Below are positions 6,213 through 56,408 of a stretch of 64,000 nucleotides of DNA, in pieces. The translations under genes and the position numbers were made by a program. Source of the DNA: Bacteroidales bacterium (GTDB lineage Bacteria; Bacteroidota; Bacteroidia; Bacteroidales; WCHB1-69); assembly GCA_016290295.1 (NCBI GenBank), contig JAEETJ010000003.1:127048-191047 (forward strand). Reading direction: 5' to 3'. The number at the start of each line of letters is the position of its first letter. Position 1 is the stretch's first letter. A model generated the notes under the pieces. The model worked only from the letters and a program-made list of their open reading frames with translations. It searched no databases and was not told where the DNA came from.

Positions 6213-6254
6213 TAGAGTATTAGTTCTCAGTTTTCAGTTTTCAGTTTTCAGTTC
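6213..6254. repeat. heptamer array (6 words) overlapping the recX stop
   Basis: TAGAGTA TTAGTTC TCAGTTT TCAGTTT TCAGTTT TCAGTTC. The recX stop (TGA, 6236..6234) lies inside it. Confidence 0.8.
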
Positions 6255-9767: not shown

Positions 9768-9772
9768 TATAA

Positions 9773-9863
9773 TTGACAGTTAATAATTAATAATTTATAG
9801 TTTTGAATTTTGAATTCTTAATTCTTAATATCTGTAATCTGCTCCCTGTTCCCTGTAACCTCA
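9773..9863. repeat. heptamer array (13 words in one register)
   Basis: TTGACAG TTAATAA TTAATAA TTTATAG TTTTGAA TTTTGAA TTCTTAA TTCTTAA TATCTGT AATCTGC TCCCTGT TCCCTGT AACCTCA. Overlaps the last ~15 codons of the AI-2E transporter gene. Confidence 0.8.
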
Positions 9864-10954
9864 TTTTGCTCGTCATCATCAATGAAGTATTGTCCGAAGA
9901 GTTCCTTGAAGACGATACGCAGGAGAGTGTAAACAGGAACGGCGAAGATCATGCCCAGTACACCACCGATTTGGGAGGCGGCCATGATGACAATGAAGAT
10001 TTCAATGGGGTGTGCCTTCACACTCTTTCCGTAGATGACAGGCTGCAGCACAAAGTTGTCAATCAGCTGTGCTGAGAAGAAGATGGCCACCACCTTTATA
10101 ATATTATACAACACATCTATACCTGCAGGCGACAGAGGAATCATGCTGGTACAGGAAATGATGACATTCAAGCATAATGAAATCAAGGGTCCAAGATAGG
10201 GGATGACATTCAATAAGCCCGACAATACACCTATCAGAGCAGCATCGGGAACTCCTAACAGTTTGCAGGCGATACCATTGATAAGCCCCACAATGCACAT
10301 CTCAATGAGTACTCCTCCGAAGTATCTACCAACCTGTTTGCCCGTGGCTTCCACAATGTTGCTGAAGTTAGGACGCAGTTTGCTGGGGATGAATTTACGT
10401 ATGGTCTTAAGGAAAATACCATCATCTTTTAAGGAGAAAAAAGTGAGGAAAAGGATGGCAAAAACAGCCACAAACACGCTGGCGATGATGCCAACAAGGT
10501 TGCCAAGGATATTCCCGAAATCAAGTCTTTTGACAAGTCCCTGAAGTTGTAGGACCAGTCCCTCGGAAATCTCTGTGGCGGTCACGTCTATGCCTTGGTT
10601 AGAAGCAATATGCTCGAATTTGGAAAGAAAACGGTTGTAACCTTCCACAACCACTTGAGGATCAATGGAGGTGAGATTCTTGACTTCCTGGCTGATGAGA
10701 GGGGTCAGAATGGCAAAAAAGCCATAGAAAAATCCGAAAATAATCACCATGGCTATAATGGCTGCCAAGGGACGGGGGAAGGTGAATTTTTTGATTCTTA
10801 TTTTGCAAAGCAGCTTGACAATGGGGCGTCCTGCTACGGTAAGGGCGAGAGCAACGAGCAAATATATGACAATACTGGAGAAATACCAGCAGAGGAAAGC
10901 CAGTAAAGCTAAAAACAGCAGGATTACTAACATATGGGGAAGGTCGGACTTCAT
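9818..10954 (-). CDS. AI-2E family transporter (PerM/UPF0118)
   Basis: 378 aa, polytopic membrane protein. Family-typical stretch LLGVPDAALIGVLSGLLNVIPYLGPLIS. Confidence 0.85.
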   Translation of the reverse strand: MKSDLPHMLVILLFLALLAFLCWYFSSIVIYLLVALALTVAGRPIVKLLCKIRIKKFTFPRPLAAIIAMVIIFGFFYGFFAILTPLISQEVKNLTSIDPQVVVEGYNRFLSKFEHIASNQGIDVTATEISEGLVLQLQGLVKRLDFGNILGNLVGIIASVFVAVFAILFLTFFSLKDDGIFLKTIRKFIPSKLRPNFSNIVEATGKQVGRYFGGVLIEMCIVGLINGIACKLLGVPDAALIGVLSGLLNVIPYLGPLISLCLNVIISCTSMIPLSPAGIDVLYNIIKVVAIFFSAQLIDNFVLQPVIYGKSVKAHPIEIFIVIMAASQIGGVLGMIFAVPVYTLLRIVFKELFGQYFIDDDEQNEVTGNREQITDIKN

Positions 10955-39568: not shown

Positions 39569-40660
39569 ATGAAACAGACAGTATTCAAAGAAACTCATGA
39601 GAAATTAGGTGCCAAAATGGTTGAATTTGCAGGCTTTTACATGCCCATCCAGTACGAAGGCGTGTCAGCAGAACACCTGCATGTGAGAAGCAAAGTCGGT
39701 GTGTTCGACGTTTCCCACATGGGCGAATTCACCGTGAAAGGTCCCAAAGCTTTAGACCTGCTCCAGTACATTACTTCCAACGACGTGGCCGCTCTCTTCC
39801 CCGGCAAGGTGCAGTATTCCTGCTTCCCCAATGGCAACGGCGGTATCGTTGACGACCTCTTGGTGTACAACATCGCTGAAAACGACTATCTGTTGGTGGT
39901 GAACGCCGCTAATATCGACAAGGACTGGGCTTGGGTAAGCAAACAGAACGAGAAATTCGGTGCTGAAATCGCTAATATCTCCGACAATATCTCACAGTTG
40001 GCCGTTCAGGGTCCTTTGGCACTGAAAGCCATGCAGAAACTGACCGATGCCAATGTCATCGACATGGAATATTATACCACCAAGACTATCACTTTCGCTG
40101 GTATTCCTAATATCATCTTCTCTACCACAGGTTACACAGGTGCCGGTGGTTGCGAGATTTATTTCAAAAACGAGGACGCTCTCAAGGTTTGGGACGCTGT
40201 TTTTGAAGCTGGCAAGGAATTCGACATCAAACCTATCGGTTTGGGTGCCCGCGACACTTTGCGTCTGGAAATGGGCTTCTGCCTCTATGGTCACGAAATC
40301 GACGACACCATCACTCCCGTTGAGGCTGGTTTGGGCTGGATTACCAAATTTGTGGACCACAAGAACTTCATCGACAAAGATTTCATGTTGAATTTGAAAG
40401 CCAACGGCATGAGAAAGAAATTAGCTGGCTTTGAAATGATTGAGCGTGGTATTCCGCGTTTGGAATATGAGGTTTGCGACGCTGAAGGCAACCACATCGG
40501 TATTGTCCGTTCAGGTACTTTCGGACCCTCTATCAACAAATCAGTGGGTACCGCTTGGTTGAAACCCGAATTCGCCAAATCAGGCACGGAAATCTACATC
40601 AAGATCCGTGAGAAACTGGTGAAGGCTGTTACTGTGAAAATGCCGTTTTATAAAGGATAA
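39569..40660 (+). CDS. gcvT: glycine cleavage system aminomethyltransferase GcvT
   Basis: 363 aa from ATG 39569 (MKQTVFKETHEKLGAKMVEFAGFYMPIQY); VGVFDVSHMGEF; family sequence throughout. Confidence 0.95.
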   Translation: MKQTVFKETHEKLGAKMVEFAGFYMPIQYEGVSAEHLHVRSKVGVFDVSHMGEFTVKGPKALDLLQYITSNDVAALFPGKVQYSCFPNGNGGIVDDLLVYNIAENDYLLVVNAANIDKDWAWVSKQNEKFGAEIANISDNISQLAVQGPLALKAMQKLTDANVIDMEYYTTKTITFAGIPNIIFSTTGYTGAGGCEIYFKNEDALKVWDAVFEAGKEFDIKPIGLGARDTLRLEMGFCLYGHEIDDTITPVEAGLGWITKFVDHKNFIDKDFMLNLKANGMRKKLAGFEMIERGIPRLEYEVCDAEGNHIGIVRSGTFGPSINKSVGTAWLKPEFAKSGTEIYIKIREKLVKAVTVKMPFYKG

Positions 40661-40751
40661 AACAGGATTCAGGATTCAGGGGACAGGTGTCAGATTTATT
40701 ACTGATACCTGTAACCTGACACCTGTAACCTGACATCTGATACCTGAAAAT
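40661..40751. repeat. heptamer array (13 words) filling the stop-to-start gap exactly
   Basis: AACAGGA TTCAGGA TTCAGGG GACAGGT GTCAGAT TTATTAC TGATACC TGTAACC TGACACC TGTAACC TGACATC TGATACC TGAAAAT, then the ATG. Confidence 0.85.
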
Positions 40752-41222
40752 ATGTACGACAAACGATTTATGGAGGAAGCCGTTGCCCTGTCCCGGAAAT
40801 GTATCGGGACAGGCAAGGGTGGTCCTTTTGGTGCTGTGGTGGTGAAAGATGGCCAAATTGTGGGCCGCGGCAGTAACAGTGTTACCCTGTTGAACGACCC
40901 CACTGCCCATGCCGAGGTGATGGCTATCAGGGATGCCTGCAAAAACCTGGAATCATTCCAACTGGATGGCTGCGAAATCTACACCAGCTGCGAGCCCTGC
41001 CCCATGTGCTTGGGTGCCATATACTGGGCGCGTCCAGACCGTGTGTATTATGCGGCAGATCGCCAAGATGCTTCAGAAGCTGGTTTCGACGACTCGTTTA
41101 TATATGAGGAACTGGATTTGCCCGCTATGGAGCGGAAAATTGTAGCTGAACAGCACGACCGCGCTATCGCTCAGGAGGTGTTCCAGCAGTGGATACACCT
41201 GGAAAACAAAATTGATTACTAA
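40752..41222 (+). CDS. CDA-fold nucleoside/guanine deaminase
   Basis: 156 aa. Zinc motifs HAE and PCPMC; GuaD-like N-terminus (GGPFGAVVVKDGQIVGRG.N). Confidence 0.85.
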   Translation: MYDKRFMEEAVALSRKCIGTGKGGPFGAVVVKDGQIVGRGSNSVTLLNDPTAHAEVMAIRDACKNLESFQLDGCEIYTSCEPCPMCLGAIYWARPDRVYYAADRQDASEAGFDDSFIYEELDLPAMERKIVAEQHDRAIAQEVFQQWIHLENKIDY

Positions 41223-41225
41223 AAC

Positions 41226-43121
41226 ATGAAGGCCACTCGTCTGCTTATCCTGCTTTTGTTGTTGTGGACTCCCTTTCTGTTGAAAGCGCAGGAAGATGAG
41301 ACCCAGGATGACAGACATTTTCATCAGCATGAGGTGGATTCCGTGATGGCCTTCTCGCCGGATTTTATGCCGGTCTCTTACGATTACATAGAACCCCACT
41401 GGATTAAGCCATTGGTAATGAAACCCGTGGATACTTCAATGGCACAAGTCCATCAATATACCCCTTGGTTGAAAACCCAGAACCTCTGTCAGGATTTGGG
41501 AATCCCCGATCAGGCACACCAGTTTATGAACTTCGATTACAATCGGGATCCTGGTTTTTCCATGATTACCTTGCCTTATCCTTTGTTATGGCAGACACAG
41601 AAAGATGTGAAGTTTTATGATGTAAAGACTTCTTTCACGGATCTTTCTTTTACATACGGAATTGTTGATTTATATGATTTCAACGCCACACACACGCAAT
41701 ATTTCAAAGGTTTGACCGCCGCTTTTGATATGCATGCCTATTCTAATGCGGGGTATTTTTTGAATCAGCAGACGAGGGATATCCGTATCAATGCATTTTT
41801 GAATTATGAGGAACCAGCTGGCATCTATGGCTTTACGGTATCGTATATTTTCAACCGATTGAAAGCACAGGAGAATGGCGGTTTGCAAGATACCTCTTTG
41901 TTTATGCATAGGGCTGCGGATGCTTTGAAGGGATATCCTGTGAAGTCTGAAAATGGTCGTTCCGTCATCATGTCAAATGATTTGCTGTTCCAGCAACATG
42001 TGAATATCATAGATAAAAAGAAGAGATATTATGGCACGATTACCCATAGTTTCCAATTCAAACATTTGAGGACGGATTATTTTGATACAAAATTCGATTC
42101 GACATTTTATCAGCATCATTTCTATTTTTCAACTGATACAACACGGGATACAGTAGCATGCTATAGCCTGATTAATACTATCCAGTGGTCGAATTATAGG
42201 CCTTTGGACACGCTTTCGTCAAAAAAGTATTTTCTCAGGATCGCCGGAGGCTTGACGCATGAGTATGTTTATGCACGAATTCCGTATTATAAGGGGAATA
42301 CGTTCACCCTTTTCGCACGCGTTCATACCCGTTTGTTCGGTGTGATGGATTTGACAGGACGCATAGCGTATTCATTTGGTGGATACAACAATAACGATGT
42401 GGTAGCTGCGGTGGGTGTCGAATGGATGATACAGAAAAAATGGAATCACCGCTTAGGAGGAAATGTCAGTTTCTACCGGAACTCACCGGATTATATCTAT
42501 GATCTTTACTACGGAAACCATAATTTATGGTATCATAAGGATTGGCCGAAGCAGAATACGCTGAAGGTAAATGCTTTCTGGACCATGATGAATTACAAGC
42601 TGGAGTTCAATTATTTTATGTTGCAAAATTTGGTGCGTTTGGACTCCCACTATGAATTGTATATATTGCCGAAGAGTGCTAATGTAATACAGTTCCATCT
42701 GTTTGCCCCTATCAGGGTAAAGGGCTTTGGACTGGATATCAATGCTTATCTGCAGTATTCGACCAGTGTGGCTTTGAATCTTCCTTTGTTCGCTTTCAAA
42801 GCATCCCCTTATTACATTTTCAATGTGTTGCATGGTAAGCTGAAAATACAGATAGGCTGTGATTTGATGTACAATACTTTGTATTTCGCTGATGGGTATG
42901 ACCCTGTTATGCATCAGTTCTATTTCCAAAGAACAATGAGAGTGGGTAACTATGTGTATTGGGATGCCAACTTGACACTTAAAATCAAGCGTATCAGCTT
43001 CTTCTTCAGGGCAGGGCACATTTTGTCGGGTGTAGTAGGGCAGTTCTATTTTCTGACTCCCGATTACCCGGCACAAGGACGAAACTTCCAGCTGGGCATC
43101 AATTGGAAATTCTATGACTAA
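41226..43121 (+). CDS. outer-membrane beta-barrel protein (putative porin family)
   Basis: 631 aa. Signal peptide MKATRLLILLLLLWTPFLLKAQ, Y/G/N/F-rich alternating pattern, terminal strand GINWKFYD. Confidence 0.6.
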   Translation: MKATRLLILLLLLWTPFLLKAQEDETQDDRHFHQHEVDSVMAFSPDFMPVSYDYIEPHWIKPLVMKPVDTSMAQVHQYTPWLKTQNLCQDLGIPDQAHQFMNFDYNRDPGFSMITLPYPLLWQTQKDVKFYDVKTSFTDLSFTYGIVDLYDFNATHTQYFKGLTAAFDMHAYSNAGYFLNQQTRDIRINAFLNYEEPAGIYGFTVSYIFNRLKAQENGGLQDTSLFMHRAADALKGYPVKSENGRSVIMSNDLLFQQHVNIIDKKKRYYGTITHSFQFKHLRTDYFDTKFDSTFYQHHFYFSTDTTRDTVACYSLINTIQWSNYRPLDTLSSKKYFLRIAGGLTHEYVYARIPYYKGNTFTLFARVHTRLFGVMDLTGRIAYSFGGYNNNDVVAAVGVEWMIQKKWNHRLGGNVSFYRNSPDYIYDLYYGNHNLWYHKDWPKQNTLKVNAFWTMMNYKLEFNYFMLQNLVRLDSHYELYILPKSANVIQFHLFAPIRVKGFGLDINAYLQYSTSVALNLPLFAFKASPYYIFNVLHGKLKIQIGCDLMYNTLYFADGYDPVMHQFYFQRTMRVGNYVYWDANLTLKIKRISFFFRAGHILSGVVGQFYFLTPDYPAQGRNFQLGINWKFYD

Positions 43122-43130
43122 CAAAAAAGA

Positions 43131-43256
43131 GATAATAGTTGATAGTTAATAATTAATAGTTGACGAATAATGACTAATAGATAAGGAATAGTATTTGATA
43201 AACAAGGGATTATTTTCCTATTAACTATTAACTGTTAACTATTAACTGTAAATTGC
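43131..43256. repeat. heptamer array (18 words in one register)
   Basis: GATAATA GTTGATA GTTAATA ATTAATA GTTGACG AATAATG ACTAATA GATAAGG AATAGTA TTTGATA AACAAGG GATTATT TTCCTAT TAACTAT TAACTGT TAACTAT TAACTGT AAATTGC. Confidence 0.8.
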
Positions 43257-43261
43257 AAACA

Positions 43262-44635
43262 ATGATAGAATACAGAAAAGAAAAGGATACCATGGGTACG
43301 GTTGAGGTGCCGTCTGACAAGCTCTGGGGGGCACAAACCCAGCGTTCCTACACGAATTTCAAGATCGGCGGGCAACAGATGCCCCTGGAAGTGGTCTATG
43401 CCTTGGCTTACGTGAAAAAGGCTGCAGCATACGCCAATTGTGAGCTTGGGGTACTTCCTGCAGAGAAGAGGGATGCTATTGCCGCTTGCTGTGATGAGAT
43501 AGCGGCTGGCCGGTTGGATGAGCATTTTCCGCTGTGTGTTTGGCAGACTGGTTCGGGTACCCAAACCAATATGAATGTGAATGAGGTGATCGTGAATCGT
43601 TCTGAGCAGAAAAGCAAGGGTATGATCGATGTTTCCAATCGTTTGCTTTCGGCCAATGACGATGTGAACAAGTCACAGTCCACTAACGATGTTTTTCCTA
43701 CAGCCATCAGAATTGCTTCTGCAAAGTTGTTGTTGGAAAAGACAATACCGGCATTAGAGAGCTTGGTTAAGACATATCAAAGTAAAATTGATGAGTTCGG
43801 AAGTATCAAAAAAATTGGAAGAACTCACATGATGGATGCAACGCCACTGACCTTGGGCGAGGAATTGTCGGGACACCAGTCGCAAGTAATGCATGGGGTA
43901 GAGTGCCTGAAAAATGCCCTGAAACATTTGATGGAACTTCCCGTTGGCGGAACTGCGGTGGGCAATGGCTTGAATACGCCCGAAGGCTACGACCGCTTGG
44001 CATTGTCATATATTAACCAGTTCACGGGCATGCAGTTCGTGAATGCTCCCAACAAGTTCGAGGCGATGGCCAGCCACGACAGCATGGTAGAAGTTTCGGG
44101 TGCGTTAAAGCGCTTGGCAGTATCGTTGATGAAGATTGCCAACGATATTCGTCTGTTGTCGTCGGGACCGCGTTGTGGTATCGGTGAGCTGACTATTCCT
44201 GCCAATGAGCCAGGTTCGTCCATTATGCCGGGTAAGGTGAATCCTACCCAGTGCGAGGCCCTGACTATGGTATGCTGTCAGGTGATTGGCAATGATACGG
44301 CTATGACTTGCGGTGGTTTCCAAGGACATCTGGATCTGAATGTTTTCATGCCGTTGATGGCGCAGAATTTGCTGCACTCTGCACGCATTTTGGCAGATGC
44401 GGTGGAATCCTTCAATCAGCATTGCCTGATGGGTATGAAGCCTAATCTGGAAAAAATAGATTATTACCTGAAAAACTCGCTGATGCTGGTAACCAAACTG
44501 AGTCCGACCATCGGCTATTACAATGCGGCGAAAATTGCTCAGCATGCTTTTGAACAGAATATGACCTTGAAGGAATCCGCTATGGATTTGCAACTCTTAT
44601 CTGAAGAAGAATTTGACAAAATTATGAAATTATAA
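43262..44635 (+). CDS. fumC: class II fumarate hydratase
   Basis: 457 aa from ATG 43262 (the ORF-track start at 43253 is TTG). KDTMGTVEVPSDKLWGAQTQRS, WQTGSGTQTNMNVNEV, signature GSSIMPGKVNPTQCEA. Confidence 0.93.
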   Translation: MIEYRKEKDTMGTVEVPSDKLWGAQTQRSYTNFKIGGQQMPLEVVYALAYVKKAAAYANCELGVLPAEKRDAIAACCDEIAAGRLDEHFPLCVWQTGSGTQTNMNVNEVIVNRSEQKSKGMIDVSNRLLSANDDVNKSQSTNDVFPTAIRIASAKLLLEKTIPALESLVKTYQSKIDEFGSIKKIGRTHMMDATPLTLGEELSGHQSQVMHGVECLKNALKHLMELPVGGTAVGNGLNTPEGYDRLALSYINQFTGMQFVNAPNKFEAMASHDSMVEVSGALKRLAVSLMKIANDIRLLSSGPRCGIGELTIPANEPGSSIMPGKVNPTQCEALTMVCCQVIGNDTAMTCGGFQGHLDLNVFMPLMAQNLLHSARILADAVESFNQHCLMGMKPNLEKIDYYLKNSLMLVTKLSPTIGYYNAAKIAQHAFEQNMTLKESAMDLQLLSEEEFDKIMKL

Positions 44636-47509: not shown

Positions 47510-49333
47510 TTATTTCTTTTTGTTCTTGATACTTTCTTTGCCAAACGAATAGGTTATGCCTATGAGGGCGTTGATGCCGAAGTTGTTGAAGTCGTAGTAT
47601 TTAGCATAGTATTGGCAGCCTATATTGTTGATGGTGGCGAAGGCGGAGAAGTTCTTGTTGATAAGGTATTCGAAGCCGATGCCGAAGTCCAACACGGGTT
47701 TCATCTTGGTGGGTGCATAGCATACATTGCCAAGTTCATCATAGCGGATATTGCCTTTCTCATCACGCGGAGCCAAAGCCCAACGCATGAATTCCAACTT
47801 GAAATTCAGGTCGAAAATGTATTTTCCTTTCAAGGTGTATTTTCCGTCAAAACCGAAGTCCAAAGCGGGTTTATACCAAGCGTATTGCAGTTCACTGTCT
47901 TTTTTGAAATAGTAACCGTTGTAGTTGGCTTCAAAATTCAGTGACAAATGGTCAATCACGTCCCAGGAAAGATTGAAGCAGACATTGAGATAGTTCACAT
48001 CGTTATAAAGCACCAAGAATTTGTTACGTAGCAGGTAGGTTGGATTCAACTGGAAGAAGGCCATATCCTGCACGAAAGCGTAGCGGGCAGAAATGTGGTA
48101 GTTCAGTTTTTTGACCAGATTTCCCTTGATGCCGCCATAGATGTTGATACGGGTGCGGGTGAAATCAGGAATGTCAAAACCTGTGAAAGTGGGGGAATAA
48201 TACGGGTTCTCATACAGCAATTCTTTCATGCCGTTATATTGAGCTTTGCCATCCACACCAGCATAAATGCTGAGAATACTGGGCACAATGCCTAACTGTA
48301 CTTCCGCCACGGGATAAACAGGGCAGCGGGTGACCTCATTCGAACGCAATACGGGAACACCCACACCTACCTTGATGTGATATTCCTTGATGGTGAATTG
48401 CATGTTGGGGACGACTTCAAATTTGAAGGCATTGGCATTGTAATATCCTGGATTGTCCCCTTCGAGTGTTCTGGTGTAGTATTGGAGACGGTCGTTATAA
48501 TAATCGAAATTGAAGTCTATACGATAGTTCTGGCTTCCAGAAACCTTTATAAAGCGGCTGTCGTAAGCGAAAAATGAAGTGATGCCCAGATGGTTCTCCA
48601 TGTTCTTGTTATGGCAACGCAGGAAGTTGTAATTCAGGCGTACATCTTGTTTGAGCTTCTTGACACCGGGCAGGTGATTGGAGCGGACGCCAATTTCTGC
48701 CTTCACATGGTGGAAGTCGTTGCGGATTTCATCGTAATAGTTTTTGGAGTAATAGTCTTCGAGATAATAGTTTCTTGCTTCTAAGACATCTTTCCCATAG
48801 CCATAGAAATGTGCCAGTTCGTGATTGTAGCCTACGGATGAATACAGGGTTTGATCTTTGAAAAAACGGGTCAAAAACAGATGTACGCGGGTGTCACTGG
48901 TAGGAGCGTAGACGTAATTTTTCTGTTTTTTGCCCACGGGACCTGCCCATGAGGAAAAATGGTGCAGGTTGATGCCATACGAATACTTGGTATTATTGGC
49001 ATTATGGGCGGCAAACTCCAACAGGGGAGTCAATGGATAGCCGAATCCCACCTTGATGAAATTGCGGGCGATGCTCTCAGTGACTTCTGGGGACAACTTG
49101 CTGGCCTTGATGGGGGTAGGGGAGAAGGTCACATCCATCTGGGCTGGAGTGATGTAATAGTCGAATTTGACGTTCTCCTTGACCGTGTCATTGATGACCG
49201 CCTGTTGGTTGATTTTTTGCACATTGCTTAACTGCGGGTTGAAATTCAGACGGAAACGGGCGGTGTCAATTGCCTGGCCGAAAGCCCAACTGGCAATGCA
49301 AATTATGGCTGCTGTTAAAAAGATGCGTTTCAT
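47510..49333 (-). CDS. outer-membrane beta-barrel protein (putative porin family)
   Basis: 607 aa. Signal peptide (IICIASWAFGQ), Y/N/F/G-rich alternating strands, terminal strand GITYSF followed by a basic tail. Confidence 0.6.
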   Translation of the reverse strand: MKRIFLTAAIICIASWAFGQAIDTARFRLNFNPQLSNVQKINQQAVINDTVKENVKFDYYITPAQMDVTFSPTPIKASKLSPEVTESIARNFIKVGFGYPLTPLLEFAAHNANNTKYSYGINLHHFSSWAGPVGKKQKNYVYAPTSDTRVHLFLTRFFKDQTLYSSVGYNHELAHFYGYGKDVLEARNYYLEDYYSKNYYDEIRNDFHHVKAEIGVRSNHLPGVKKLKQDVRLNYNFLRCHNKNMENHLGITSFFAYDSRFIKVSGSQNYRIDFNFDYYNDRLQYYTRTLEGDNPGYYNANAFKFEVVPNMQFTIKEYHIKVGVGVPVLRSNEVTRCPVYPVAEVQLGIVPSILSIYAGVDGKAQYNGMKELLYENPYYSPTFTGFDIPDFTRTRINIYGGIKGNLVKKLNYHISARYAFVQDMAFFQLNPTYLLRNKFLVLYNDVNYLNVCFNLSWDVIDHLSLNFEANYNGYYFKKDSELQYAWYKPALDFGFDGKYTLKGKYIFDLNFKLEFMRWALAPRDEKGNIRYDELGNVCYAPTKMKPVLDFGIGFEYLINKNFSAFATINNIGCQYYAKYYDFNNFGINALIGITYSFGKESIKNKKK

Positions 49334-49350
49334 TATCTCTATTCTATTAT

Positions 49351-49455
49351 ATTAATTCAAAATTCAAAATCCAAAATTCAATGTTAAATGTTTAGTGTTT
49401 AGAGGTATAAGAGCTTAATTATCAATTATTAATTGTTAACTGTTAACTGTCAACT
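49351..49455. repeat. heptamer array (15 words in one register)
   Basis: ATTAATT CAAAATT CAAAATC CAAAATT CAATGTT AAATGTT TAGTGTT TAGAGGT ATAAGAG CTTAATT ATCAATT ATTAATT GTTAACT GTTAACT GTCAACT. Its end overlaps the TPR gene stop. Confidence 0.85.
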
Positions 49456-52400
49456 ATTCCTCACTATTTTCTGTCTGTTCCGCTCTGTCGAGGGCAGCGA
49501 TCTTGTCTTCCGCCACTTTCTTCAGGTCTTCGCCCTCATAGTTGTCGATGATACTTTGGTAGGTGTAGCGAGCTTGGAAAGCGTTGCCTTTGGCGAGATA
49601 AACATCACCATAGAGAATGAAGGTTGAGGCATACCAATATTCTGATGTATAATCGGATGCCAGAATTTCTTTGATTTGTTTCTCGCAGAGATCTAAATTG
49701 TTATCGTTAAAATGGATGAGAGCCACTAAATAAGCGGCTTCGGCACACTGGTCGTTGTTGCCGTTCTTTGAGAGGCGTGTCAGATATTTGAGAGCATTGG
49801 TATTGTCGCTCAGGGCAATGGCTGATTTGCCGGCAATCATCAGGGCTTCGTTTTGTAGGTCATTGTCATTTTGTCCTGACAGCATAATGTTAGTAGCTGC
49901 ATTGTATGCATCTCTGTATTGGCGCAGCTCGTATGCACAGTGCATGCAACCATTATTGCCATAAATGATGTTGTTGTCGTTAGAGGCGTATTCCACTAAT
50001 TTTTTGAAATAAACCAGTGCGCGGCTGTACTCTTTCTTTCCGTATAGGATGCTGGCAGCTTTGCGGTAGGCCGTTTCGTTGTATTCGGTATTGTAATTGT
50101 TGACCAATCTCTCGAAGGAGGCTAATGCATTGTCATAGTCGCCGGTGCCATATTCGCAATCGCCCTTGCAGTACAGTGCTTTGGCAGCGAACAGACCATT
50201 GGGGAACTGGCGCAGATAATCGTTGTAGGCTTTGATAGCTGCTTCGCAGTCGCCACGCATATATTTGTTGTCGGCAGCCTTGAAGCTGATGGAATCTTGC
50301 TTGTCAGCGGAGATGTTAAGGTTGCGGGTTTTGATGTATGCGAAGAAATCGCTGGTGTTGCCAGTCTCGCTGTAAATGTTTTCCAGGTTGGCCAAGGCGT
50401 CTTTGGCTTCTTGTGAACCGGGATAAGTTTCAAACACATACTTGAAAGTGGAAATAGCCATATCCACATCTTGTGTGTTCAGATACGACTGGGCCAATTT
50501 GTTGTGTGCCTGTCTGATATAGGGACTTTTGGGGTGTTTGAGAATGAAGTTTTTGTATGCCGCAATGGCAGCTCCATATTCATTTTGAGCGTGATAAGTG
50601 GAAGCCAGTTCATATTCCGCATCATCAATATAGCTTGACTTTGGATAACTGCTCATCAGTCGCTCCAAAACATCAATTTTCTTGTTGTAGTCGTTGAGAT
50701 AGCTGTAGCATTTAGCGGTTTGGAAGATGGCGTAGTCGGCGTTTTTCTGTCCTAATTGCTGACATTGCTCATAGTATTTAATGGCCGTTTTCAAGTCTTT
50801 TTGCATATAGTAGCAGTCGGCCAAACGTGCGGTGGCATCCGCTTCAATATCCACATTGTCGCTTTTTTGCAGGTATTTGCGGAAACCTTGGGCAGCTTCT
50901 GAATACTTGTTAAGTTTTAGAGCCGCATAACCGTATGAGTATTGGGCGTTGTTGTAGTTGACATCAGCGGTGGCATTGGAGGCCTTCATATAATTCTGGA
51001 AGGAATAGTAGCTGTCTCTGTATTTTTCGCTGCGGTATTCACACTCGGCTTTCCAATAAAGATTCTCGGTGTTGATGGTCTTGTCCATGGGGTAGGTGAG
51101 TGATTTGTTGAGCATTTTGAGAGCATCCTTATAGTTGCGATTGTTGATCATTTCCAAAGCGCGGAAATGGGTGCAGCGTTGGTAAGCTCTTAACAATGAG
51201 GGACTTTTGATGTCAATCTTTTCCAATGAGTTGATGGCACTTTGGTAGTTTTTGGTGGACATGTAAATGGAGGCTAAGTAGCTGTTGGCTTCCTGTGAAC
51301 GCGAAGAGTAGGGGTATTTGTTGATATAGTCTTCCAAGGCCTTGATGGCGCTGTTGAAAGGACTGGAGGATGTCTCATACTGTAATTTGGCATGATTATA
51401 CAAGGCATCTTCTTGAATATCAGTATTAAAGTTGTATTTTGATGCTTGCAGAAAACTTTGTGAAGCGGTCTGATAGTCCTTCTGCTGTAAGTAGCAGTCG
51501 GCAATCAGATAATAGCTGTTCTGCGTCATCTCATCGGCTGGTTTTTGGCTTGTGGTCTTGGACAGGTATTTGACGGCCTCGTCATACTTTTTGTTTTGAT
51601 AGAAAGTATAACCGATGGCGAAATAGTCGTTGCGTTCAAGCTGCACTTTGTCATTGTTGAGGATAGGTCTGAAAGAAGCCTCGGCATTGCGGAAATCCTT
51701 GAGGTTGTAGAAAGATAATGCCAGTGTGCGGTACAACTCGGGTTGGTTCTTCAGGTTGTTTTCCGTCATGACGGAGGGTGCCATGGCTACAACCTTATCA
51801 TACTGTTCCTGAAGGAAATAGATCTGCATCAAGTATTGTTGCACTTCATCCTTGTATTCGGGAACATTCTGTAATTTCTGGAAATCTTCCAAGGCAGCCT
51901 CGTACTGTTTGTCGGAATAGGCCATGTGAGCCAAATAATACAGGGCTCTGTAGTGATAGGGACCGTTTTCCTCGCTGCTTTGTTTCAGCAAGGCTTTGGC
52001 CTCCGCATATTTGCCAGTGGCAAAATAGCTGTAGCCTTTTTTGAAGCGGAACTCTGCCAGGTCGTCTTTGTTGACTACTCTTTCATCGATTTCATCGAAT
52101 TGTTCCAGCACTTTTTTGTATTGCTTGGTAGAAAAATAATACATGCCCAGGTGATAATGAGCCTGGGGCACAAAGGCGTGGACCGGATATTGGCGGATAA
52201 AGTCGCTGAGCAGGAAAGCGGCATCCTGATTGCTTAGCTTGGCGGCGCACAAACCCAGATAAAAATAGGATTCAGCTTTCAAGTCCTGTTGTTTGTCCTC
52301 GCTGAATTCGTAAACTTGTTTGAAATATTGCTGTGCGGAACCGTATTTCTGTTTCTGGAAAAGTTCCTTGGCTAATTTGTATTCGTATCGCGGCGAGTCA

Positions 52401-52483
52401 TAGGCAACAGGCTTCTGAGCCAACACTGATGCGGAACACAGGATGATGGCTGCGATGAGAATGTTTTGGAGGATTGATTTCAT
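49454..52483 (-). CDS. tetratricopeptide repeat protein (1009 aa)
   Basis: Signal peptide with a possible lipobox (AAIILCSAS). TPR-like Y/A/L periodicity over the whole length. Confidence 0.85.
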   Translation of the reverse strand: MKSILQNILIAAIILCSASVLAQKPVAYDSPRYEYKLAKELFQKQKYGSAQQYFKQVYEFSEDKQQDLKAESYFYLGLCAAKLSNQDAAFLLSDFIRQYPVHAFVPQAHYHLGMYYFSTKQYKKVLEQFDEIDERVVNKDDLAEFRFKKGYSYFATGKYAEAKALLKQSSEENGPYHYRALYYLAHMAYSDKQYEAALEDFQKLQNVPEYKDEVQQYLMQIYFLQEQYDKVVAMAPSVMTENNLKNQPELYRTLALSFYNLKDFRNAEASFRPILNNDKVQLERNDYFAIGYTFYQNKKYDEAVKYLSKTTSQKPADEMTQNSYYLIADCYLQQKDYQTASQSFLQASKYNFNTDIQEDALYNHAKLQYETSSSPFNSAIKALEDYINKYPYSSRSQEANSYLASIYMSTKNYQSAINSLEKIDIKSPSLLRAYQRCTHFRALEMINNRNYKDALKMLNKSLTYPMDKTINTENLYWKAECEYRSEKYRDSYYSFQNYMKASNATADVNYNNAQYSYGYAALKLNKYSEAAQGFRKYLQKSDNVDIEADATARLADCYYMQKDLKTAIKYYEQCQQLGQKNADYAIFQTAKCYSYLNDYNKKIDVLERLMSSYPKSSYIDDAEYELASTYHAQNEYGAAIAAYKNFILKHPKSPYIRQAHNKLAQSYLNTQDVDMAISTFKYVFETYPGSQEAKDALANLENIYSETGNTSDFFAYIKTRNLNISADKQDSISFKAADNKYMRGDCEAAIKAYNDYLRQFPNGLFAAKALYCKGDCEYGTGDYDNALASFERLVNNYNTEYNETAYRKAASILYGKKEYSRALVYFKKLVEYASNDNNIIYGNNGCMHCAYELRQYRDAYNAATNIMLSGQNDNDLQNEALMIAGKSAIALSDNTNALKYLTRLSKNGNNDQCAEAAYLVALIHFNDNNLDLCEKQIKEILASDYTSEYWYASTFILYGDVYLAKGNAFQARYTYQSIIDNYEGEDLKKVAEDKIAALDRAEQTENSEE

Positions 52484-52598
52484 TATGTTCGTTTTTTTAT
52501 TAATCGATAATAATATTAATTAACGAACAAAAATATGAAATTGGTATACAGCAATCTAATATTCTCTTATAAATTTGTGAACAGCCTATTTTTAATAA

Positions 52599-52773
52599 CA
52601 GTGGTCAGTGGTCAGGATTCAGGGGCCAGGGGGCGGAGATTAGTTGACAATTGACAATTAACAATTAACCTTCTAAACTCAACACGTTAGACATTTGAAT
52701 TTTGAATTCTGAATTCTTAACCTCTAACCCCTAACCCCTAATTACTGTAACCTAAAACCTGTAACCTGTTAAC
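52599..52773. repeat. heptamer array (25 words, 175 nt, one register)
   Basis: Runs from CAGTGGT CAGTGGT CAGGATT CAGGGGC CAGGGGG ... to TGTAACC TAAAACC TGTAACC TGTTAAC (full parse in findings). The last word contains the ABC-F stop codon. Confidence 0.9.
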
Positions 52774-54691
52774 TGTCTTGCAGTTCCAGCCACTCCATCT
52801 CTTTTTCCTCGATGGCGTTTTTGATGTCATTGTACTGGGTGTAGAGTTCGCCCGAATTGATTTCGGTAGCATAGTCGGAGGGATTGGAAATCTTGTTTTC
52901 GATGATGCTAAGTTGCTGTTGTAGGTCGGCGATTTCGCTTTCGATTTTGCTGAGGCGGTTTTTAAGTTTCCGCTTAGCTGCTTCCTCTTCTTTTTTCTTC
53001 TCCCAGCTGATTTTGTTGGAACTCTCGATTTTCTCGCCGTTGCCAGCCACTTGGACTCTCTTGTCCAGTTCTTTCAGTGAATCCAACTTCTTCTTTTCAA
53101 GGAAGTCATAGACATCGCCGATATAGGTCTTGATGTGATGGTCTTTGAATTCGAAGACTTTGGTACTGAGGCCTTGCAGGAAGTCACGATCGTGGGAGAC
53201 CAGAATCATGCTTCCCTCGTATTGCAGCAGGGCGTTTTTGAGCACGTCTTTCGACTGCATGTCGAGGTGGTTAGTGGGCTCGTCGAGGATGAGCAGGTTG
53301 AAAGGGGAGAGCAGTAGTTTGGCAAGGGCCAAACGGGATTTTTCGCCACCAGACAACACGCTCACTTTCTTTTCGGTGTCTTCGGTGTCGAAGAGGAAAC
53401 TGCCGAGGATGGTTCTGATTTTCGGACGGATGTCACCCACGGCGATGTCGTCGATGGTTTCGAAGACGGTCTTGTCGGGGTTGAGCAGCTGGGCCTGGTT
53501 CTGGGCGTAGTAGCCGATGACCACCTGGTGACCCAAAGTCAGTTTGCCGCCTTGCGGGGCCAACTCGCCCACGATGGCTTTGACCATGGTGGATTTGCCT
53601 TCGCCATTACGGCCTACAAAAGCTACCTTTTCGCCTCTTTCCAAGTGAAAATCAATGTTTTTCAGTACTTCCAAATTGCCATAACCCAGATTAAGTCCTT
53701 CGGTTTCAACGGTCACACGGCCAGAGTGTGGGGCAGGGGGGAACTTGAACGAAATGGACGAATGGTCGATACTTTCCACTTCGATTTTTTCCATTTTGTC
53801 AAGCAACTTGATACGGCTTTGCACCTGTTTGGCCTTGGTGGCCTTATAGCGGAAGCGCTCGATGAAGCGCTCTATTTGGGCGATTTCTTTTTGCTGGTTT
53901 TCGAAGGCGTTCTGCTGTGATTCAATGCGTTCCAGACGCTGTTCTACATACTGTGAATAGCTGCATTTGTAGTCTTGCAGGCTGCCGAAGGTGATCTCGA
54001 CAGTGCGGTTGGTCACGCGGTCAAGGAAGGCACGGTCGTGCGACACCAAGATGAGGCAACCGGCGTAGTTGGCCAGATAGTCTTCCAGCCACTGGATAGA
54101 CTCAATGTCGAGGTGGTTGGTGGGCTCGTCGAGGAGGATGATTTCCGGCTGTTGCAGCAGGATTTTGGCCAAGTTGACGCGCATCTGCCAGCCGTTGCTG
54201 AATTCGGCCATGGGGCGGGAGAAGTCGGAGGCTTTGAACCCCAGGCCGATAAGCACTTTCTCCGCATCGCCCTCCATGGTAGCACCTCCAAGATGGTGGA
54301 AGCGGTCGGTGGCGTCCGATAACTGCTGGGCGAGGCTGATGTACTCGTCCGATTCGTAGTCGTCGCGGTCGGCGAGTTTGGCGTTGATCTCCTTGATTTT
54401 AGCTTCCAAGCGGCGTGGCTCCACAAAGCAGGCCATGGTCTCTTCCCAGATGGTCTTGTTGTAGTTGCCGAGAATTTCCTGTGGCAGGTAGCCGGTTTTA
54501 AAGCCAGAGGTGATGACAATACTGCCGGATTCGGGTTCCAGTTCCTTATGGATAATCTTAAGCAGGGTTGACTTGCCCGCGCCGTTTTTGCCAACAAGGC
54601 CGATTCGGTCGCGGTCACCCGCCACAAAAGATATATCTTTAAATAAGTAGTCGCCGGTAAAGTTGACCGACAGTTTGTTTATCTGTATCAT
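52769..54691 (-). CDS. ABC-F family ATPase
   Basis: 640 aa with two ABC cassettes (GKNGAGKST / FSNGWQMR / LLDEPTNHLD; GRNGEGKST / LSGGEKSR / ILDEPTNHLD), no TM domain, and a C-terminal coiled-coil tail. Confidence 0.93.
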   Translation of the reverse strand: MIQINKLSVNFTGDYLFKDISFVAGDRDRIGLVGKNGAGKSTLLKIIHKELEPESGSIVITSGFKTGYLPQEILGNYNKTIWEETMACFVEPRRLEAKIKEINAKLADRDDYESDEYISLAQQLSDATDRFHHLGGATMEGDAEKVLIGLGFKASDFSRPMAEFSNGWQMRVNLAKILLQQPEIILLDEPTNHLDIESIQWLEDYLANYAGCLILVSHDRAFLDRVTNRTVEITFGSLQDYKCSYSQYVEQRLERIESQQNAFENQQKEIAQIERFIERFRYKATKAKQVQSRIKLLDKMEKIEVESIDHSSISFKFPPAPHSGRVTVETEGLNLGYGNLEVLKNIDFHLERGEKVAFVGRNGEGKSTMVKAIVGELAPQGGKLTLGHQVVIGYYAQNQAQLLNPDKTVFETIDDIAVGDIRPKIRTILGSFLFDTEDTEKKVSVLSGGEKSRLALAKLLLSPFNLLILDEPTNHLDMQSKDVLKNALLQYEGSMILVSHDRDFLQGLSTKVFEFKDHHIKTYIGDVYDFLEKKKLDSLKELDKRVQVAGNGEKIESSNKISWEKKKEEEAAKRKLKNRLSKIESEIADLQQQLSIIENKISNPSDYATEINSGELYTQYNDIKNAIEEKEMEWLELQDS

Positions 54692-55734: not shown

Positions 55735-55769
55735 AACTGAAAGTTGAAAACTGAAAACAGAAAGTTATA
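55735..55769. repeat. heptamer array (5 words) upstream of rimM
   Basis: AACTGAA AGTTGAA AACTGAA AACAGAA AGTTATA. Confidence 0.7.
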
Positions 55770-55796: not shown

Positions 55797-56318
55797 ATGA
55801 TGAAAAACGAATATTTTTATTTGGGACATATCACCAAACCCTTTGGTATCAAGGGACAGCTATGCTGCTACTTCGACACGGACGAACCGGAAAAGTATGT
55901 GAATCTGGATGCGGTGTTCTTGGATTTGGACGGCGAAAAACTGCCCTATCTGATAGAAGATATCCAGTATCGGGGTGCCAATACCTTTGTGATTAAGTTC
56001 CAAGATGTGGATGAAGAAGAGGCCAAAGGCTTGGTCAAAGCGGAAATGTATCTCCCCTTGTCAGAACTTCCTCCCTTGACTGGCAACAAGTTCTATTTTC
56101 ACGAAGTTATTGGTTTTCATGTGATTGATGAAGAAAAAGGAGACATCGGAGTCTGTCAGGATTTTATCGATATAAGCCATAATCCCATCATGCAAATTGA
56201 CCATGACGGAAAGGAGATACTGATTCCGGCTATCGACGAGGTTTTCAAGAATGTTGACCGTGAGAACCATCAGATACATATTGCTGCTCCAGAGGGGTTG
56301 ATAGATGTTTATTTGTGA
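55797..56318 (+). CDS. rimM: ribosome maturation factor RimM
   Basis: 173 aa. YLGHITKPFGIKGQL N-terminal barrel and a PRC-barrel-like C-terminal half. Classical rpsP-rimM linkage. Confidence 0.9.
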   Translation: MMKNEYFYLGHITKPFGIKGQLCCYFDTDEPEKYVNLDAVFLDLDGEKLPYLIEDIQYRGANTFVIKFQDVDEEEAKGLVKAEMYLPLSELPPLTGNKFYFHEVIGFHVIDEEKGDIGVCQDFIDISHNPIMQIDHDGKEILIPAIDEVFKNVDRENHQIHIAAPEGLIDVYL

Positions 56319-56353
56319 AGTTGAAAACTGAAAACTGAAAGTTGAAAATTTGG
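56319..56353. repeat. heptamer array (5 words) immediately after the rimM stop
   Basis: AGTTGAA AACTGAA AACTGAA AGTTGAA AATTTGG. Same words as 55735..55769 and the reverse complement of the recX array words. Confidence 0.75.
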
Positions 56354-56408
56354 GATGAAAGTGGGGATGTAAGCTCTTAACTTTTATTTGAATTTTTTAT
56401 CAAAAAAA

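Follow-up and report, generated by a model that had tools for sequence, protein, structure and literature searches.

A heptanucleotide repeat array between an ABC-F gene and a TPR-protein gene in an uncultured rumen Bacteroidales bacterium, compared with the described prokaryotic heptamer repeats

Arrays of heptamers have been known for 35 years in cyanobacteria, and were later recorded in Xanthomonas, in Beggiatoaceae and in a few Bacteroidetes. The REP/BIME elements of enterobacteria, on their part, are transcribed intergenic hairpins that follow stop codons and can stabilise the upstream message. Among the described heptamer systems, prokaryotic heptanucleotide ‘long simple sequence repeats’ (LSSR) were reported by Mrazek et al. 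(2007, as summarised in PMC4679880 and PMC4692102), and the STRR heptamers of Calothrix and Nostoc are mentioned in PMC4692102. Direct repeats of TAACTGA and related heptamers were described in Beggiatoaceae, cyanobacteria and five Bacteroidetes (MacGregor 2015, PMC4679880), where the stop codons within the heptamers were viewed as a constraint on where such arrays persist, while G-rich heptamers (GGGAATC in Xanthomonas and GGGGA(C/T)T in Nostoc, inverted pairs included) were analysed by Rehm et al. (2015, PMC4692102). Furthermore, in Nostoc PCC 7120 contiguous TTTTGAA/TTCAAAA heptamers lie close to start codons and promoters, and the finding that deletion of the repeats changed reporter output suggests modulatory effects (bioRxiv 10.1101/2022.06.06.494920). 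The initial annotation of the array considered here knew of no description of such an architecture; this judgement has to be revised, as heptamer arrays are already present in PMC4679880, in PMC4692102 and among the cyanobacterial STRR, and the 175-nt spacer that we analysed is a member of this described heptamer-repeat kind, in a host group of rumen and gut Bacteroidales.

The window (the whole stretch of 64,000 nucleotides that was analysed) comes from an uncultured rumen Bacteroidales bacterium and was set against ~1 Mb (1.04 Mb) of DNA from related Bacteroidales, the loci of which are labelled L001 and so forth. Both genes that flank the focal array are read from the minus strand (the plus strand being antisense to ABC-F and TPR alike), and the locus comprises, in the direction of transcription, the following features:

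52769..54691, minus strand: ABC-F ATPase gene (640 aa); the first array word of the mRNA strand holds its stop codon
52599..52773, minus strand: focal heptamer array of 25 words, recognised by period, phase lock and alignment breaks against array-free genomes
52718..52768, minus strand: 5' arm (mRNA strand), G-rich and C-poor (AGGTTAC, TTAGGGG, TTAGAGG), predicted to pair with the 3' arm
52641..52717, minus strand: AT-rich middle with palindromic-hexamer words (AGAATTC, TCAATTG, TTAATTG) and a degenerate centre
52599..52640, minus strand: 3' arm (mRNA strand), C-rich and G-poor (CTGACCA twice, CTGAATC, CTGGCCC, CCGCCCC)
52484..52598, minus strand: conserved TPR promoter and leader block, nearly invariant in nine relatives
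49454..52483, minus strand: gene for a TPR-repeat protein (1009 aa), following the array

On the mRNA strand the array extends from the ABC-F stop codon to the conserved block upstream of the TPR gene, and positions 52599-52773 read exactly as the 25 words that the initial annotation had listed, with the ABC-F stop codon (TAA, complement of 52769-52771) in the last of them. The Hamming distances between neighbouring words (0,3,3,1,4,6,2,1,0,4,4,4,3,2,1,0,5,1,0,3,5,2,2,2) do not exceed 3 in 17 of 24 cases, in agreement with the statement that most neighbours are 0-3 substitutions apart. Identity at lag 7 reaches 0.655, as compared to 0.256 ± 0.034 in 2000 dinucleotide shuffles (z = 11.8, shuffle maximum 0.387), amounts to 0.54, 0.47 and 0.41 at lags 14, 21 and 28, and is ~0.2 at off-register lags; one column holds A in 20 of the 25 words, and the column information is 1.99 bits (0.54 ± 0.18 in 5000 controls, maximum 1.43). 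A single register is kept across all 25 words, so that the described drift without loss of register holds. The focal array thus consists of head-to-tail 7-nt copies beyond chance, as heptanucleotide SSR/STRR do, and it contains no TAACTGA, the unit of the TAACTGA family. As had been judged from the outset, it is neither a uniform microsatellite nor a CRISPR array, since the latter requires repeats of 23-55 nt and unique spacers of similar length, and the units found here are contiguous, 7 nt long and free of spacers. A G-quadruplex was likewise rejected, since it needs at least four G runs of at least three G per strand and the focal spacer has only two per strand.

Alignments to array-free genomes break at 52598/52599 and at 52762-52776, and therefore 52599-52773 represents the true limits of an insertion: the focal array is an inserted expansion, bounded exactly by the ABC-F stop codon on one side and by the TPR promoter/leader block on the other. 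The latter (near-invariant whether or not the relative carries an array) is ordered as TTATTAAAAA..CTGTTCACAA, followed by CTGTATACCAATTTCATATTTTTGTTCGTTAAT with a TAnnTTTG-like box, and then by a stem TGTTCGTT/AACGAACA. A search with the Rfam 15 covariance models gave no match at gathering score at the focal array, the sole match in the window being a tRNA at 54887-54960.

The same architecture had been counted at about ten loci of the window; Tandem Repeats Finder produced period-7 rows at ~10 sites, and a stricter scan recovered 8 tracts at lag 7 (as compared to 0-2 at lags 2-13). In the period-7 scan against shuffles that the initial annotation had suggested, z exceeded 3 in 6 of 28 intergenic regions of the window and in 0 of 101 coding chunks. 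The arrays outside the focal spacer are:

49332..49477, minus strand: heptamer array that occupies the entire spacer between the TPR stop and the next gene start
40645..40756, plus strand: hairpin-type heptamer array filling the spacer between a gcvT-like and a cytidine deaminase gene
43110..43277, plus strand: two heptamer sub-arrays (43114-43179 and 43205-43266) between a porin gene and a fumarase gene
9762..9864, minus strand: heptamer array from an AI-2E transporter gene to a DeoC-like gene (z = 4.8)
6199..6271, minus strand: post-stop array (3-4 copies of AACTGAA) after a recX-like gene
6013..6070, minus strand: C-rich pre-start array (ACCTGAT, ACCTGTA, ACCTAAA twice) that reaches the prfB ATG at 6027
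55735..55763, plus strand: short AACTGAA/AGTTGAA array in the spacer between rpsP (S16) and rimM
56299..56357, plus strand: AGTTGAA/AACTGAA array behind the rimM stop, conserved also in L001 and L002

The array at 9762..9864 spans the whole 50-nt spacer together with both gene ends, and the second porin/fumarase sub-array extends into the start codon. The rpsP-rimM spacer is expanded in L003 (340 nt) and L009 (244 nt), and L004 has the rimM post-stop words AGTTGAA/AACTGAA at 4798-4866 (assigned by position only). Words related to TAACTGA occur in the window as AACTGAA (at 6222, 55735 and 56322) and TAACTGT (at 49429), and true TAACTGA repeats were found in the relatives L009 (8118-8201) and L028 (11466-11729).

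Arrays of this kind are almost confined to intergenic DNA: with gene calls that are crude (longest ORFs) and array statistics that pool orthologous, non-independent arrays, period-7 tracts occupy 7.5% of the intergenic bases and 0.14% of the coding ones (~1 Mb). Periodic tracts over the 1.04 Mb sum to 7951 bp at lag 7, versus 89-1968 bp at the other lags from 5 to 12. Spacers that hold an array are 57 of 456 among co-directional gene pairs, 8 of 92 among convergent and 4 of 91 among divergent ones, and the arrays cluster by clade (4 of 25 loci carry one in one clade, as compared to 13 of 16 and 10 of 11 in the others). The over-representation of 7-nt units, the intergenic bias, the whole-unit polymorphism and the sporadic occurrence among lineages are those of heptanucleotide SSR/STRR. 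On a practical note, two contigs end inside arrays (i.e. arrays break metagenome assemblies), and heptamer arrays can be miscalled as spurious ORFs.

The alleles of relatives show how the spacer changes. Arrays with different words occupy the ABC-F/TPR spacer in the window, L001, L002, L009, L081 and L083 (terminal CTGACCA words being common to the window and to the L002, L081, L082 and L083 alleles), and the same spacer has no array in L003, L004 and L068. The alignment of orthologous spacers, which the initial annotation had likewise proposed, revealed word gain and loss as gaps in multiples of 7 nt (7 and 98 nt between L002 and L083), as well as some empty alleles; the relatives' spacers measure 200, 193, 214 and 284 nt, each of which leaves a remainder of 4 on division by 7. 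The near-identical strain GCA_016648615.1 has the same spacer length as the window, 285 nt. Turnover is much faster than in the flanks; whole 7-nt words are gained and lost and point changes are added, which accounts for a ‘word ladder’ with its register kept. As three relatives have no array, it is a dispensable expansion, absent from some sister genomes and not essential. Slippage-born spacer DNA, until now listed as one alternative among several, fits these observations (allele lengths differing by multiples of 7, sister genomes devoid of the array). On the other hand, an array of some kind follows ABC-F in relatives down to ~72-78% protein identity (L010, L012, L014, L015, L017 and L064), and the array downstream of TPR, in which the window and L001 differ by indels of 21 and 7 nt, retains related words in four lineages; such persistence could reflect positive selection and not tolerance.

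Array word orientation follows transcription. Six arrays repeat the word AAAACTG, and none repeats its complement (AACCAAT and AAACCTT behave likewise), and the sense strand has more A than T in 42 of 50 arrays. Those that abut a start have more C than G in 18 of 20 cases (G 7%, C 28%), whereas those that abut a stop have more G than C in 19 of 23 (stop versus start contrast, p = 8e-6), and the rule (G/A-rich after stops, C/A-rich and nearly G-free before starts) also holds in convergent and divergent spacers, which points to selection at the level of the transcript. A general G-to-C gradient within every array was not significant (26 versus 18, p = 0.29), and replication strand was rejected as the determinant of orientation, the same sense-strand bias being present on both strands of one monotonic GC-skew segment. 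As in the TAACTGA family, the arrays lie forward to the adjacent gene and often abut its start, the focal one abutting a stop.

It is extremely unlikely, in our estimate, that the arrays act at the DNA level, i.e. as DNA that is curved or specially bound ahead of the TPR promoter, or as a footprint or remnant of a mobile element (scars of 7-bp duplications, MITE). The focal array does lie ~40 nt upstream of a conserved promoter-like block, 21 bp correspond to two helical turns, duplications of 7 bp are made by some transposons (PMC4679880), and the array has inverted ends. Nevertheless, orientation tracks transcription for genes on both strands of one replichore, which a symmetric DNA property would not do, and the arrays sit mostly after stops or at starts, divergent promoter regions being the rarest of their sites. 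DNA curvature, offered as an alternative by the initial annotation, is disfavoured on the same ground of orientation. A MITE or transposon remnant was rejected, since the arrays compared share neither terminal repeats nor full-length similarity, and numerous individual 7-nt steps, in place of a single insertion, set filled alleles apart from empty ones.

The strict sense-strand orientation would also be expected if the arrays were multi-site platforms for a single-strand RNA-binding protein (S1, cold-shock-domain or RRM, with one heptad per domain) that tunes translation or stability of the neighbouring genes, as was already proposed for TAACTGA repeats (PMC4679880). In keeping with such a platform, one column is conserved at 71-100% through 13-48 words (mixed arrays included), pre-start arrays are G-free and unstructured, and identical words recur in distant phyla (AACTGAA/TAACTGA, TTTTGAA and GGGAAT(A/C)). 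However, the 87 distinct repeated words share no motif or common core (k-mer enrichment is modest, for AAC/GTT, TTAA, TGAC and CAGG, while TAC, GAT and ATA are depleted), the conserved column holds A, C or T depending on the array, and the arrays are dispensable and hypervariable; we consequently regard a platform of this type as distinctly unlikely.

The function favoured by the initial annotation was a frame-independent translational insulator: as 7 = 1 mod 3, stop-bearing heptads would halt ribosomes in every frame, be it after read-through or after a frameshift. The premise that most words carry a stop was derived from the plus strand (i.e. the antisense one), where a stop lies within only 12 of the 25 words. 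On the mRNA strand of the focal array 16 stop triplets occur, and none of the three frames stays open beyond +34 nt. Moreover, stop-bearing words are enriched on the sense strand (59 of the 87 distinct words, versus 43.1 ± 3.8 expected), and sense-strand stop density is 10.2 per 100 nt in arrays and 5.6 in 196 array-free spacers. The enrichment is however also present on the antisense strand (52 of 87), and a sense-specific excess was rejected (24 sense-only versus 17 antisense-only words, p = 0.35). Ordinary spacers already provide a stop per frame every ~54 nt as against ~29 nt in arrays (a small gain), and the sister genomes devoid of the array have at this spacer AT-rich sequence with several stop triplets past the ABC-F stop (L003, L004 and L068, read by eye). 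The stops are more simply seen as a condition for the survival of arrays outside genes (PMC4679880). The enrichment of stop words thus stands and its strand specificity does not; the insulator is weakly supported, and we think it very unlikely to be what the arrays are for.

The distribution of G and C within the focal array gives it folding potential. As in the inverted pairs of Rehm et al. (2015), the array begins at the end of the upstream ORF (in its stop codon) and its G-rich and C-rich halves pair, with a predicted energy of -56.4 kcal/mol (z = -3.1; z = -3.8 with another composition-matched control, and -4.1 with quarter-restricted shuffles). The gcvT-like/cytidine deaminase array is similarly built, with CAGGATT/CAGGGGA/CAGGTGT in the 5' arm and ACACCTG/TAACCTG in the 3' arm (-42.6 kcal/mol, z = -5.9).

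One may envisage that selection keeps such halves complementary, and that the resulting long intergenic stem (in RNA or DNA) prevents read-through into the TPR promoter, shields the ABC-F message against 3' exonucleases in the manner of REP elements or provides an RNase III site. Folding indeed surpasses composition-matched controls at three independent spacers (40648-40751 with z = -6.8 and -8.6, and rpsP-rimM in L003 and L009 with z = -3 to -5, besides the focal one), the L081 allele folds better still with other words (-74.4 kcal/mol, z = -6.0), word families are strictly mirrored between the arms, arrays are rarer between divergent genes, like REP elements, and inverted pairs of heptamer arrays are common in Xanthomonas too (PMC4692102). 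Against this stand the weak folds of the L001, L002 and L083 alleles (z = -1.9 to -2.3), the lack of folding in most long arrays (0 to -6 kcal/mol, with 0.0 kcal/mol predicted for G-free arrays over 98-158 nt) and the three array-free relatives. Compensatory G-C to A-U covariation between the hairpin arrays of L003 and L009 was suspected and not borne out by clean changes.

Template switching at quasi-palindromes is an established mutational mechanism, and mirrored arms could arise through it free of selection. An intrinsic terminator was rejected as a reading: on the minus strand between ABC-F and TPR there is no terminator-like site, i.e. no short GC-rich hairpin followed by a U run, the sequence after the focal hairpin being GUUAUUAAAAAU. 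On balance, a hairpin maintained for its function appears rather improbable to us.

In view of this missing terminator, the C-rich and G-poor 3' half could be taken as a Rho loading site on the ABC-F transcript, ending transcription ahead of the TPR promoter. Sense-strand windows of 78 nt contain 23-25 C and 10-11 G (C/G up to 2.3) with 16 YC dimers, and the 3' side of the arrays is as a rule made of C-rich, G-poor words. Yet in most arrays the C-rich part leads straight into the following start codon, and loading there would switch off the gene behind it, the fold prediction pairs the focal C-rich arm with the G-rich one although Rho needs unstructured RNA, and sister genomes do without the array, so that we give this proposal little chance.

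Taken together, we consider it likely that the whole is explained by an STRR or ‘long SSR’ heptanucleotide array which evolves by slippage in 7-nt steps and whose words are filtered through the transcript, with no dedicated device. Replication slippage or unequal exchange, acting in 7-nt steps, would cause the length changes, and transcript-level selection would filter the words that survive. Near starts only A/C-rich, G-poor words would persist and the RNA would stay unstructured, which suits Bacteroidia because their start regions are tuned by RNA structure and not by Shine-Dalgarno pairing (PMC6847099); after stops, G/A-rich words would persist. Where both word types meet, the halves would be complementary and could form a long imperfect hairpin in transcript or DNA. 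In the focal case the ABC-F message would carry this hairpin at its 3' untranslated end, ahead of the TPR promoter, and the hairpin would at most modulate read-through, message stability or spacing.

A more ambitious alternative, which we deem unlikely, is that the arrays constitute evolvable cis-regulatory modules read at the transcript level, with two orientation-specific ‘dialects’, expression tuned by slippage and a clade-specific factor. The dialects may be G/A-rich post-stop words on the one side, and G-free, C/A-rich, structure-free ribosome landing pads on the other; where they meet, the long hairpin may uncouple neighbouring genes, and a heptad-binding protein or a property of replication or repair may explain why arrays are limited to certain clades. 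Independent of the reading preferred, uncultured rumen and gut Bacteroidales represent a new host group with array-rich and array-free sister clades, a contrast that allows a phylogenetic-profiling search for the causal factor, and the allele series document 7-nt-step turnover together with complete array loss. If the arrays tune expression in a setting devoid of Shine-Dalgarno pairing, they would offer a simple and evolvable means of regulation; if they do not, they would be a clean example of lineage-specific mutational bias.

In comparison with known systems, the arrays resemble REP/BIME elements in occupying co-directional and convergent spacers and in being scarce in divergent promoter regions. 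They differ in that REPs are conserved units of 35-40 nt spread by a dedicated transposase, while the arrays described here are 7-nt tandem words without shared sequence, many of which do not fold. As far as the accounts of LSSR and STRR in PMC4679880 and PMC4692102 go, the likeness consists in the following: tandem 7-nt units are far commoner than other lengths, mostly intergenic and scattered among lineages, copy number varies by strain, and several heptamers exist per genome. The differences from those accounts lie in the host (an uncultured rumen Bacteroidales) and in single arrays that mix word families in place of one unit.

The TAACTGA family (PMC4679880) shares the intergenic position, the ‘forward’ placement directly upstream of starts and stops in all frames. 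It is likewise represented in operons for ribosomal proteins, its strains differ by indels in 7-nt increments, several heptamers are combined into ‘assemblages’ in Gramella, Aequorivita and Elizabethkingia, and contigs are interrupted within the arrays. Words are also held in common (TAACTGA itself in L009 and L028, AACTGAA and TAACTGT in the window), whereas the focal array is built without the TAACTGA unit, the vocabulary found here is much wider, and the split between G-rich post-stop and C-rich pre-start words is not reported there. The G-rich arrays of Rehm et al. (PMC4692102) are 89-93% intergenic, near the end of the upstream ORF, mostly co-directional and seldom divergent, vary extensively in length and sequence among close relatives at conserved positions, and include inverted pairs that can form stem-loops, all of which resembles our case; near-identical words occur here as GGGAATA (L001), GGGGATA (L021) and TTAGGGG (window). 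Their arrays are, by contrast, near-uniform and form G-quadruplexes in vitro, while an intramolecular quadruplex is not expected at the focal locus, and the G-rich strand in Xanthomonas has no gene-relative preference, while orientation here is strongly tied to transcription. Finally, the heptamers of Nostoc PCC 7120 belong to another phylum, and the effects reported for them concern the binding of cyanobacterial regulators; the likeness consists in their position near start codons and in the words themselves, with TTTTGAA in the window at 9801-9816 and GAATTTT and GAATTCT in the focal array.

The focal array is a real, well-delimited feature: its 25 heptamer words at 52599-52773 were recovered exactly, word for word, and 17 of the 24 adjacent word pairs carry 0-3 mismatches. 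Lag-7 identity reaches 0.655, with z = 11.8 relative to 2000 dinucleotide-preserving shuffles (0.256 ± 0.034), and is still high at lags 14 (0.54), 21 (0.47) and 28 (0.41). The phase lock across word families described in the initial annotation was borne out by an A in one column of 20 of the 25 words and by a column information of 1.99 bits (0.54 ± 0.18 in controls; maximum 1.43 in 5000), and the ABC-F stop codon does lie in the last listed word. As both flanking genes are encoded on the minus strand, the words as first listed are those of the antisense strand. The genes concerned are:

49454-52483, minus strand, TPR protein gene
52769-54691, minus strand, ABC-F ATPase gene
54884-54960, minus strand, tRNA-Arg (ACG) gene, upstream of the ABC-F gene

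The best matches, together with a Porin_10 domain, assign the window to uncultured Bacteroidales of the rumen or gut. The closest genome found was MAG RUG14804 (92.5% nucleotide identity across 13.7 kb), and GCA_016648615.1 was found to carry the exact ABC-F protein together with the same 285-nt spacer. We compared the ABC-F/TPR spacer in ten relatives (the window and the related Bacteroidales loci L001, L002, L003, L004, L009, L068, L081, L082 and L083). Heptamer arrays with largely differing words and lengths occupy it in the window, L001, L002, L083, L081, L082 and L009, while three alleles (L003, L004 and L068) are empty, having the conserved block TTATTAAAAA..CTGTTCACAA directly after the ABC-F stop codon. 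Alignment of the window with these empty alleles breaks at 52598/52599 and 52762-52776, i.e. at the array edges, which indicates that the array is a discrete expansion placed after the stop codon and ahead of the promoter/leader block. The alignment of orthologous spacers, as initially suggested, revealed that arrays differ by whole 7-nt steps (gaps of 7 and 98 nt between L002 and L083; 21-nt and 7-nt differences between the window and L001 in the next spacer). In four alleles, moreover, TTATTAAAAA lies 200, 193, 214 and 284 nt from the ABC-F tail, each of these lengths being 4 mod 7; the empty alleles have 33-34 nt here. The TPR promoter/leader block (52484-52598, minus strand) is nearly invariant in nine relatives; it has a TAnnTTTG-like box (TATTTTTG) and, immediately before the ATG, a stem (TGTTCGTT/AACGAACA) with a G-U change in some relatives. 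Since two contigs end within heptamer arrays (L009 at its contig end, 8118-8201; L082 at its contig start), the arrays break short-read assemblies, and metagenome-assembled genomes probably contain too few of them.

The claimed recurrence at about ten loci of the window was matched by ~10 period-7 sites in Tandem Repeats Finder and by 8 lag-7 tracts in a stricter sliding scan (0-2 for lags 2-13). The period-7 scan of spacers that had been called for gave z > 3 in 6 of 28 intergenic regions of the window vs 0 of 101 coding chunks. A set made up of the window and 80 related loci (1.04 Mb altogether) yielded 7951 bp of periodic tracts for lag 7, against 1968 bp for lag 8 (the second commonest period in the relatives) and at most 1090 bp for each of the other lags 5-12. 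By crude gene calls on this set, period-7 tracts cover 7.5% of intergenic vs 0.14% of coding bases, and are found in 57/456 co-directional, 8/92 convergent and 4/91 divergent spacers. Array presence follows clades (4/25 loci in one; 13/16 and 10/11 in two others). Tandem arrays of 8-nt units (AATTAGCA) lie beside heptamer arrays at 36162-36197 and 54713-54733 of the window, and also in L058, L061, L059, L051 and L052; the L081 allele of the focal spacer includes a run of 8-nt units (TAGAAGGT). Heptamer tracts also lie inside ORF calls (L064 7927-8074, L062 10024-10123, L058 12186-12242, L070 12008-12069), at least some of which are probably spurious and made by stop-free words; two orthologous GGTTTCA-unit tracts, well within a long ORF, may be truly coding.

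The frame-independent translational insulator proposed initially is weakly supported. Words with a stop exceed expectation (59 of the 87 distinct words that repeat vs 43.1 ± 3.8 expected with letters permuted within words), arrays have 10.2 sense-strand stops per 100 nt vs 5.6 in 196 array-free spacers, and the mRNA strand of the focal array has its three frames closed at +3, +20 and +34 nt. What did not hold is strand specificity and the need for an array: antisense stop-bearing words are also enriched (52/87; sense-only vs antisense-only 24 vs 17, p = 0.35), ordinary spacers already offer ~1 stop per 54 nt per frame (from the measured densities), and three sister genomes do without an array at the ABC-F/TPR spacer, so that an insulator is not needed. 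Stops in the words look more like a condition for array persistence outside genes, as has been argued for TAACTGA repeats (PMC4679880).

Once arrays were read in the sense of the gene next to them, word composition proved strongly oriented: AAAACTG is repeated in 6 arrays and its complement in 0 (AACCAAT 6 vs 0, AAACCTT 5 vs 0), and 42 of 50 arrays have more A than T. C > G holds in 18/20 arrays that adjoin a start codon alone (mean G 7%, C 28%), and G > C in 19/23 that adjoin a stop codon alone (G 24%, C 12%), a difference (Mann-Whitney p = 8e-6) whose p-value is generous, as are those for arrays generally, orthologous arrays being pooled and not independent. The same rule is seen in convergent and divergent spacers. 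Replication was ruled out as the source of word orientation, given that, in a segment over which GC skew is monotonic, plus-strand and minus-strand genes have the same sense-strand bias; orientation thus tracks transcription. For G-free pre-start arrays spanning 98-158 nt, folding energy is predicted at 0.0 kcal/mol, and the final 30 nt 5' of start codons in array-free spacers are 40% A and 12% G. In Bacteroidia, RNA structure tunes translation initiation, which operates without Shine-Dalgarno pairing (PMC6847099).

On the mRNA strand the focal array is G-rich in its 5' half and C-rich in its 3' half, thereby joining both word types, and its end-to-end fold is predicted at -56.4 kcal/mol (z = -3.1; z = -4.1 against shuffles preserving each quarter's composition). 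Predicted folds are also strong for the array at 40645-40756 (z = -5.9 to -8.6), the L081 allele of the focal spacer (-74.4 kcal/mol, z = -6.0) and the rpsP-rimM arrays of L003 and L009 (-83 and -86 kcal/mol, respectively; z = -3 to -5). Hairpin potential is weak in the L001, L002 and L083 focal-spacer alleles (z about -2) and absent from the predicted folds of most long arrays. In hairpin arrays, word families are mirrored between the arms; a compensatory change between L003 and L009 was suspected and fell on checking. Neither a canonical terminator nor an Rfam family match was found at the ABC-F/TPR region. The rpsP (S16)/rimM spacer, 127 nt long in the window and with a short array there, reaches 340 nt in L003 (4536-4875) and 244 nt in L009 (4694-4937); the two expansions are hairpin-type arrays within a normally single ribosomal operon, and the 3' end of the array adjoins the rimM start codon. 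We consider that the best explanation is a slippage-driven, dispensable heptamer array filtered by transcript constraints: slippage would drive growth, the constraints on the transcript would filter its products, and in the focal case a hairpin would arise where G-rich meet C-rich words.

Elsewhere in the window, prfB (release factor 2; 4944-6027, minus strand) displays a classic programmed +1 frameshift (ORF0 with ATG at 6027-6025, SD-like AGGAGG at 5976-5971 and CTT TGA C at 5967-5961; PCRF and RF-1 domains in the +1 frame from 5963), and a C-rich heptamer array reaches right to its ATG. Upstream (6075-6205, minus strand) lie two clean hairpins (GGCC-TTC-GGCC and CCCCTTCTT-CAA-GAAGGGG) followed by 3-4 units of ~21-25 nt, each with a CTCCCC end and a small GAA-loop hairpin; this element has no Rfam match and a fold z of only -2.2. 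A giant ORF (56534-64000, plus strand; >2488 aa, open at the window end) probably encodes a type IX secretion cargo protein, because its 3307-aa counterpart in GCA_016648615.1 has GEVED, Ig_7 and Por_Secre_tail domains.

The initial statement that no description was known is wrong, as heptamer arrays of matching kind are described in PMC4679880 and PMC4692102. In many prokaryotes, according to Mrazek 2007 as relayed in these two papers, heptanucleotides outnumber every other class of long simple sequence repeats, with polymerase slippage as their proposed cause. MacGregor (PMC4679880) described intergenic TAACTGA repeats, forward-oriented at start codons, with all-frame stops, 7-nt indels between strains and contigs ending in arrays, as well as mixed heptamer assemblages in Gramella, Aequorivita and Elizabethkingia; the 7-nt indels, forward orientation and contig ends are shared by the arrays found here, and TAACTGA itself is present in the relatives. 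The GGGAATC and GGGGAYT arrays of Rehm et al. (PMC4692102) are 89-93% intergenic, near the upstream ORF's end and mainly between co-directional genes, variable among close relatives, and frequently in inverted pairs capable of forming stem-loops; ours have in common with them the intergenic and co-directional placement, the variability and the inverted pairing. In Nostoc PCC 7120, TTTTGAA heptamers are reported to lie near start codons and to have reporter effects (bioRxiv 10.1101/2022.06.06.494920). Words matching or resembling the published heptamers (GGGAATA, TTAGGGG, AACTGAA and TTTTGAA) are found in this DNA and its relatives. The focal array belongs to this known, poorly understood kind of repeat; the uncultured rumen/gut Bacteroidales host group, the position-dependent word composition and the contrast of array-rich with array-poor sister clades, of which no report was seen in the papers cited here (PMC4679880, PMC4692102, PMC6847099 and the Nostoc preprint), are modest additions to it and not a new category.
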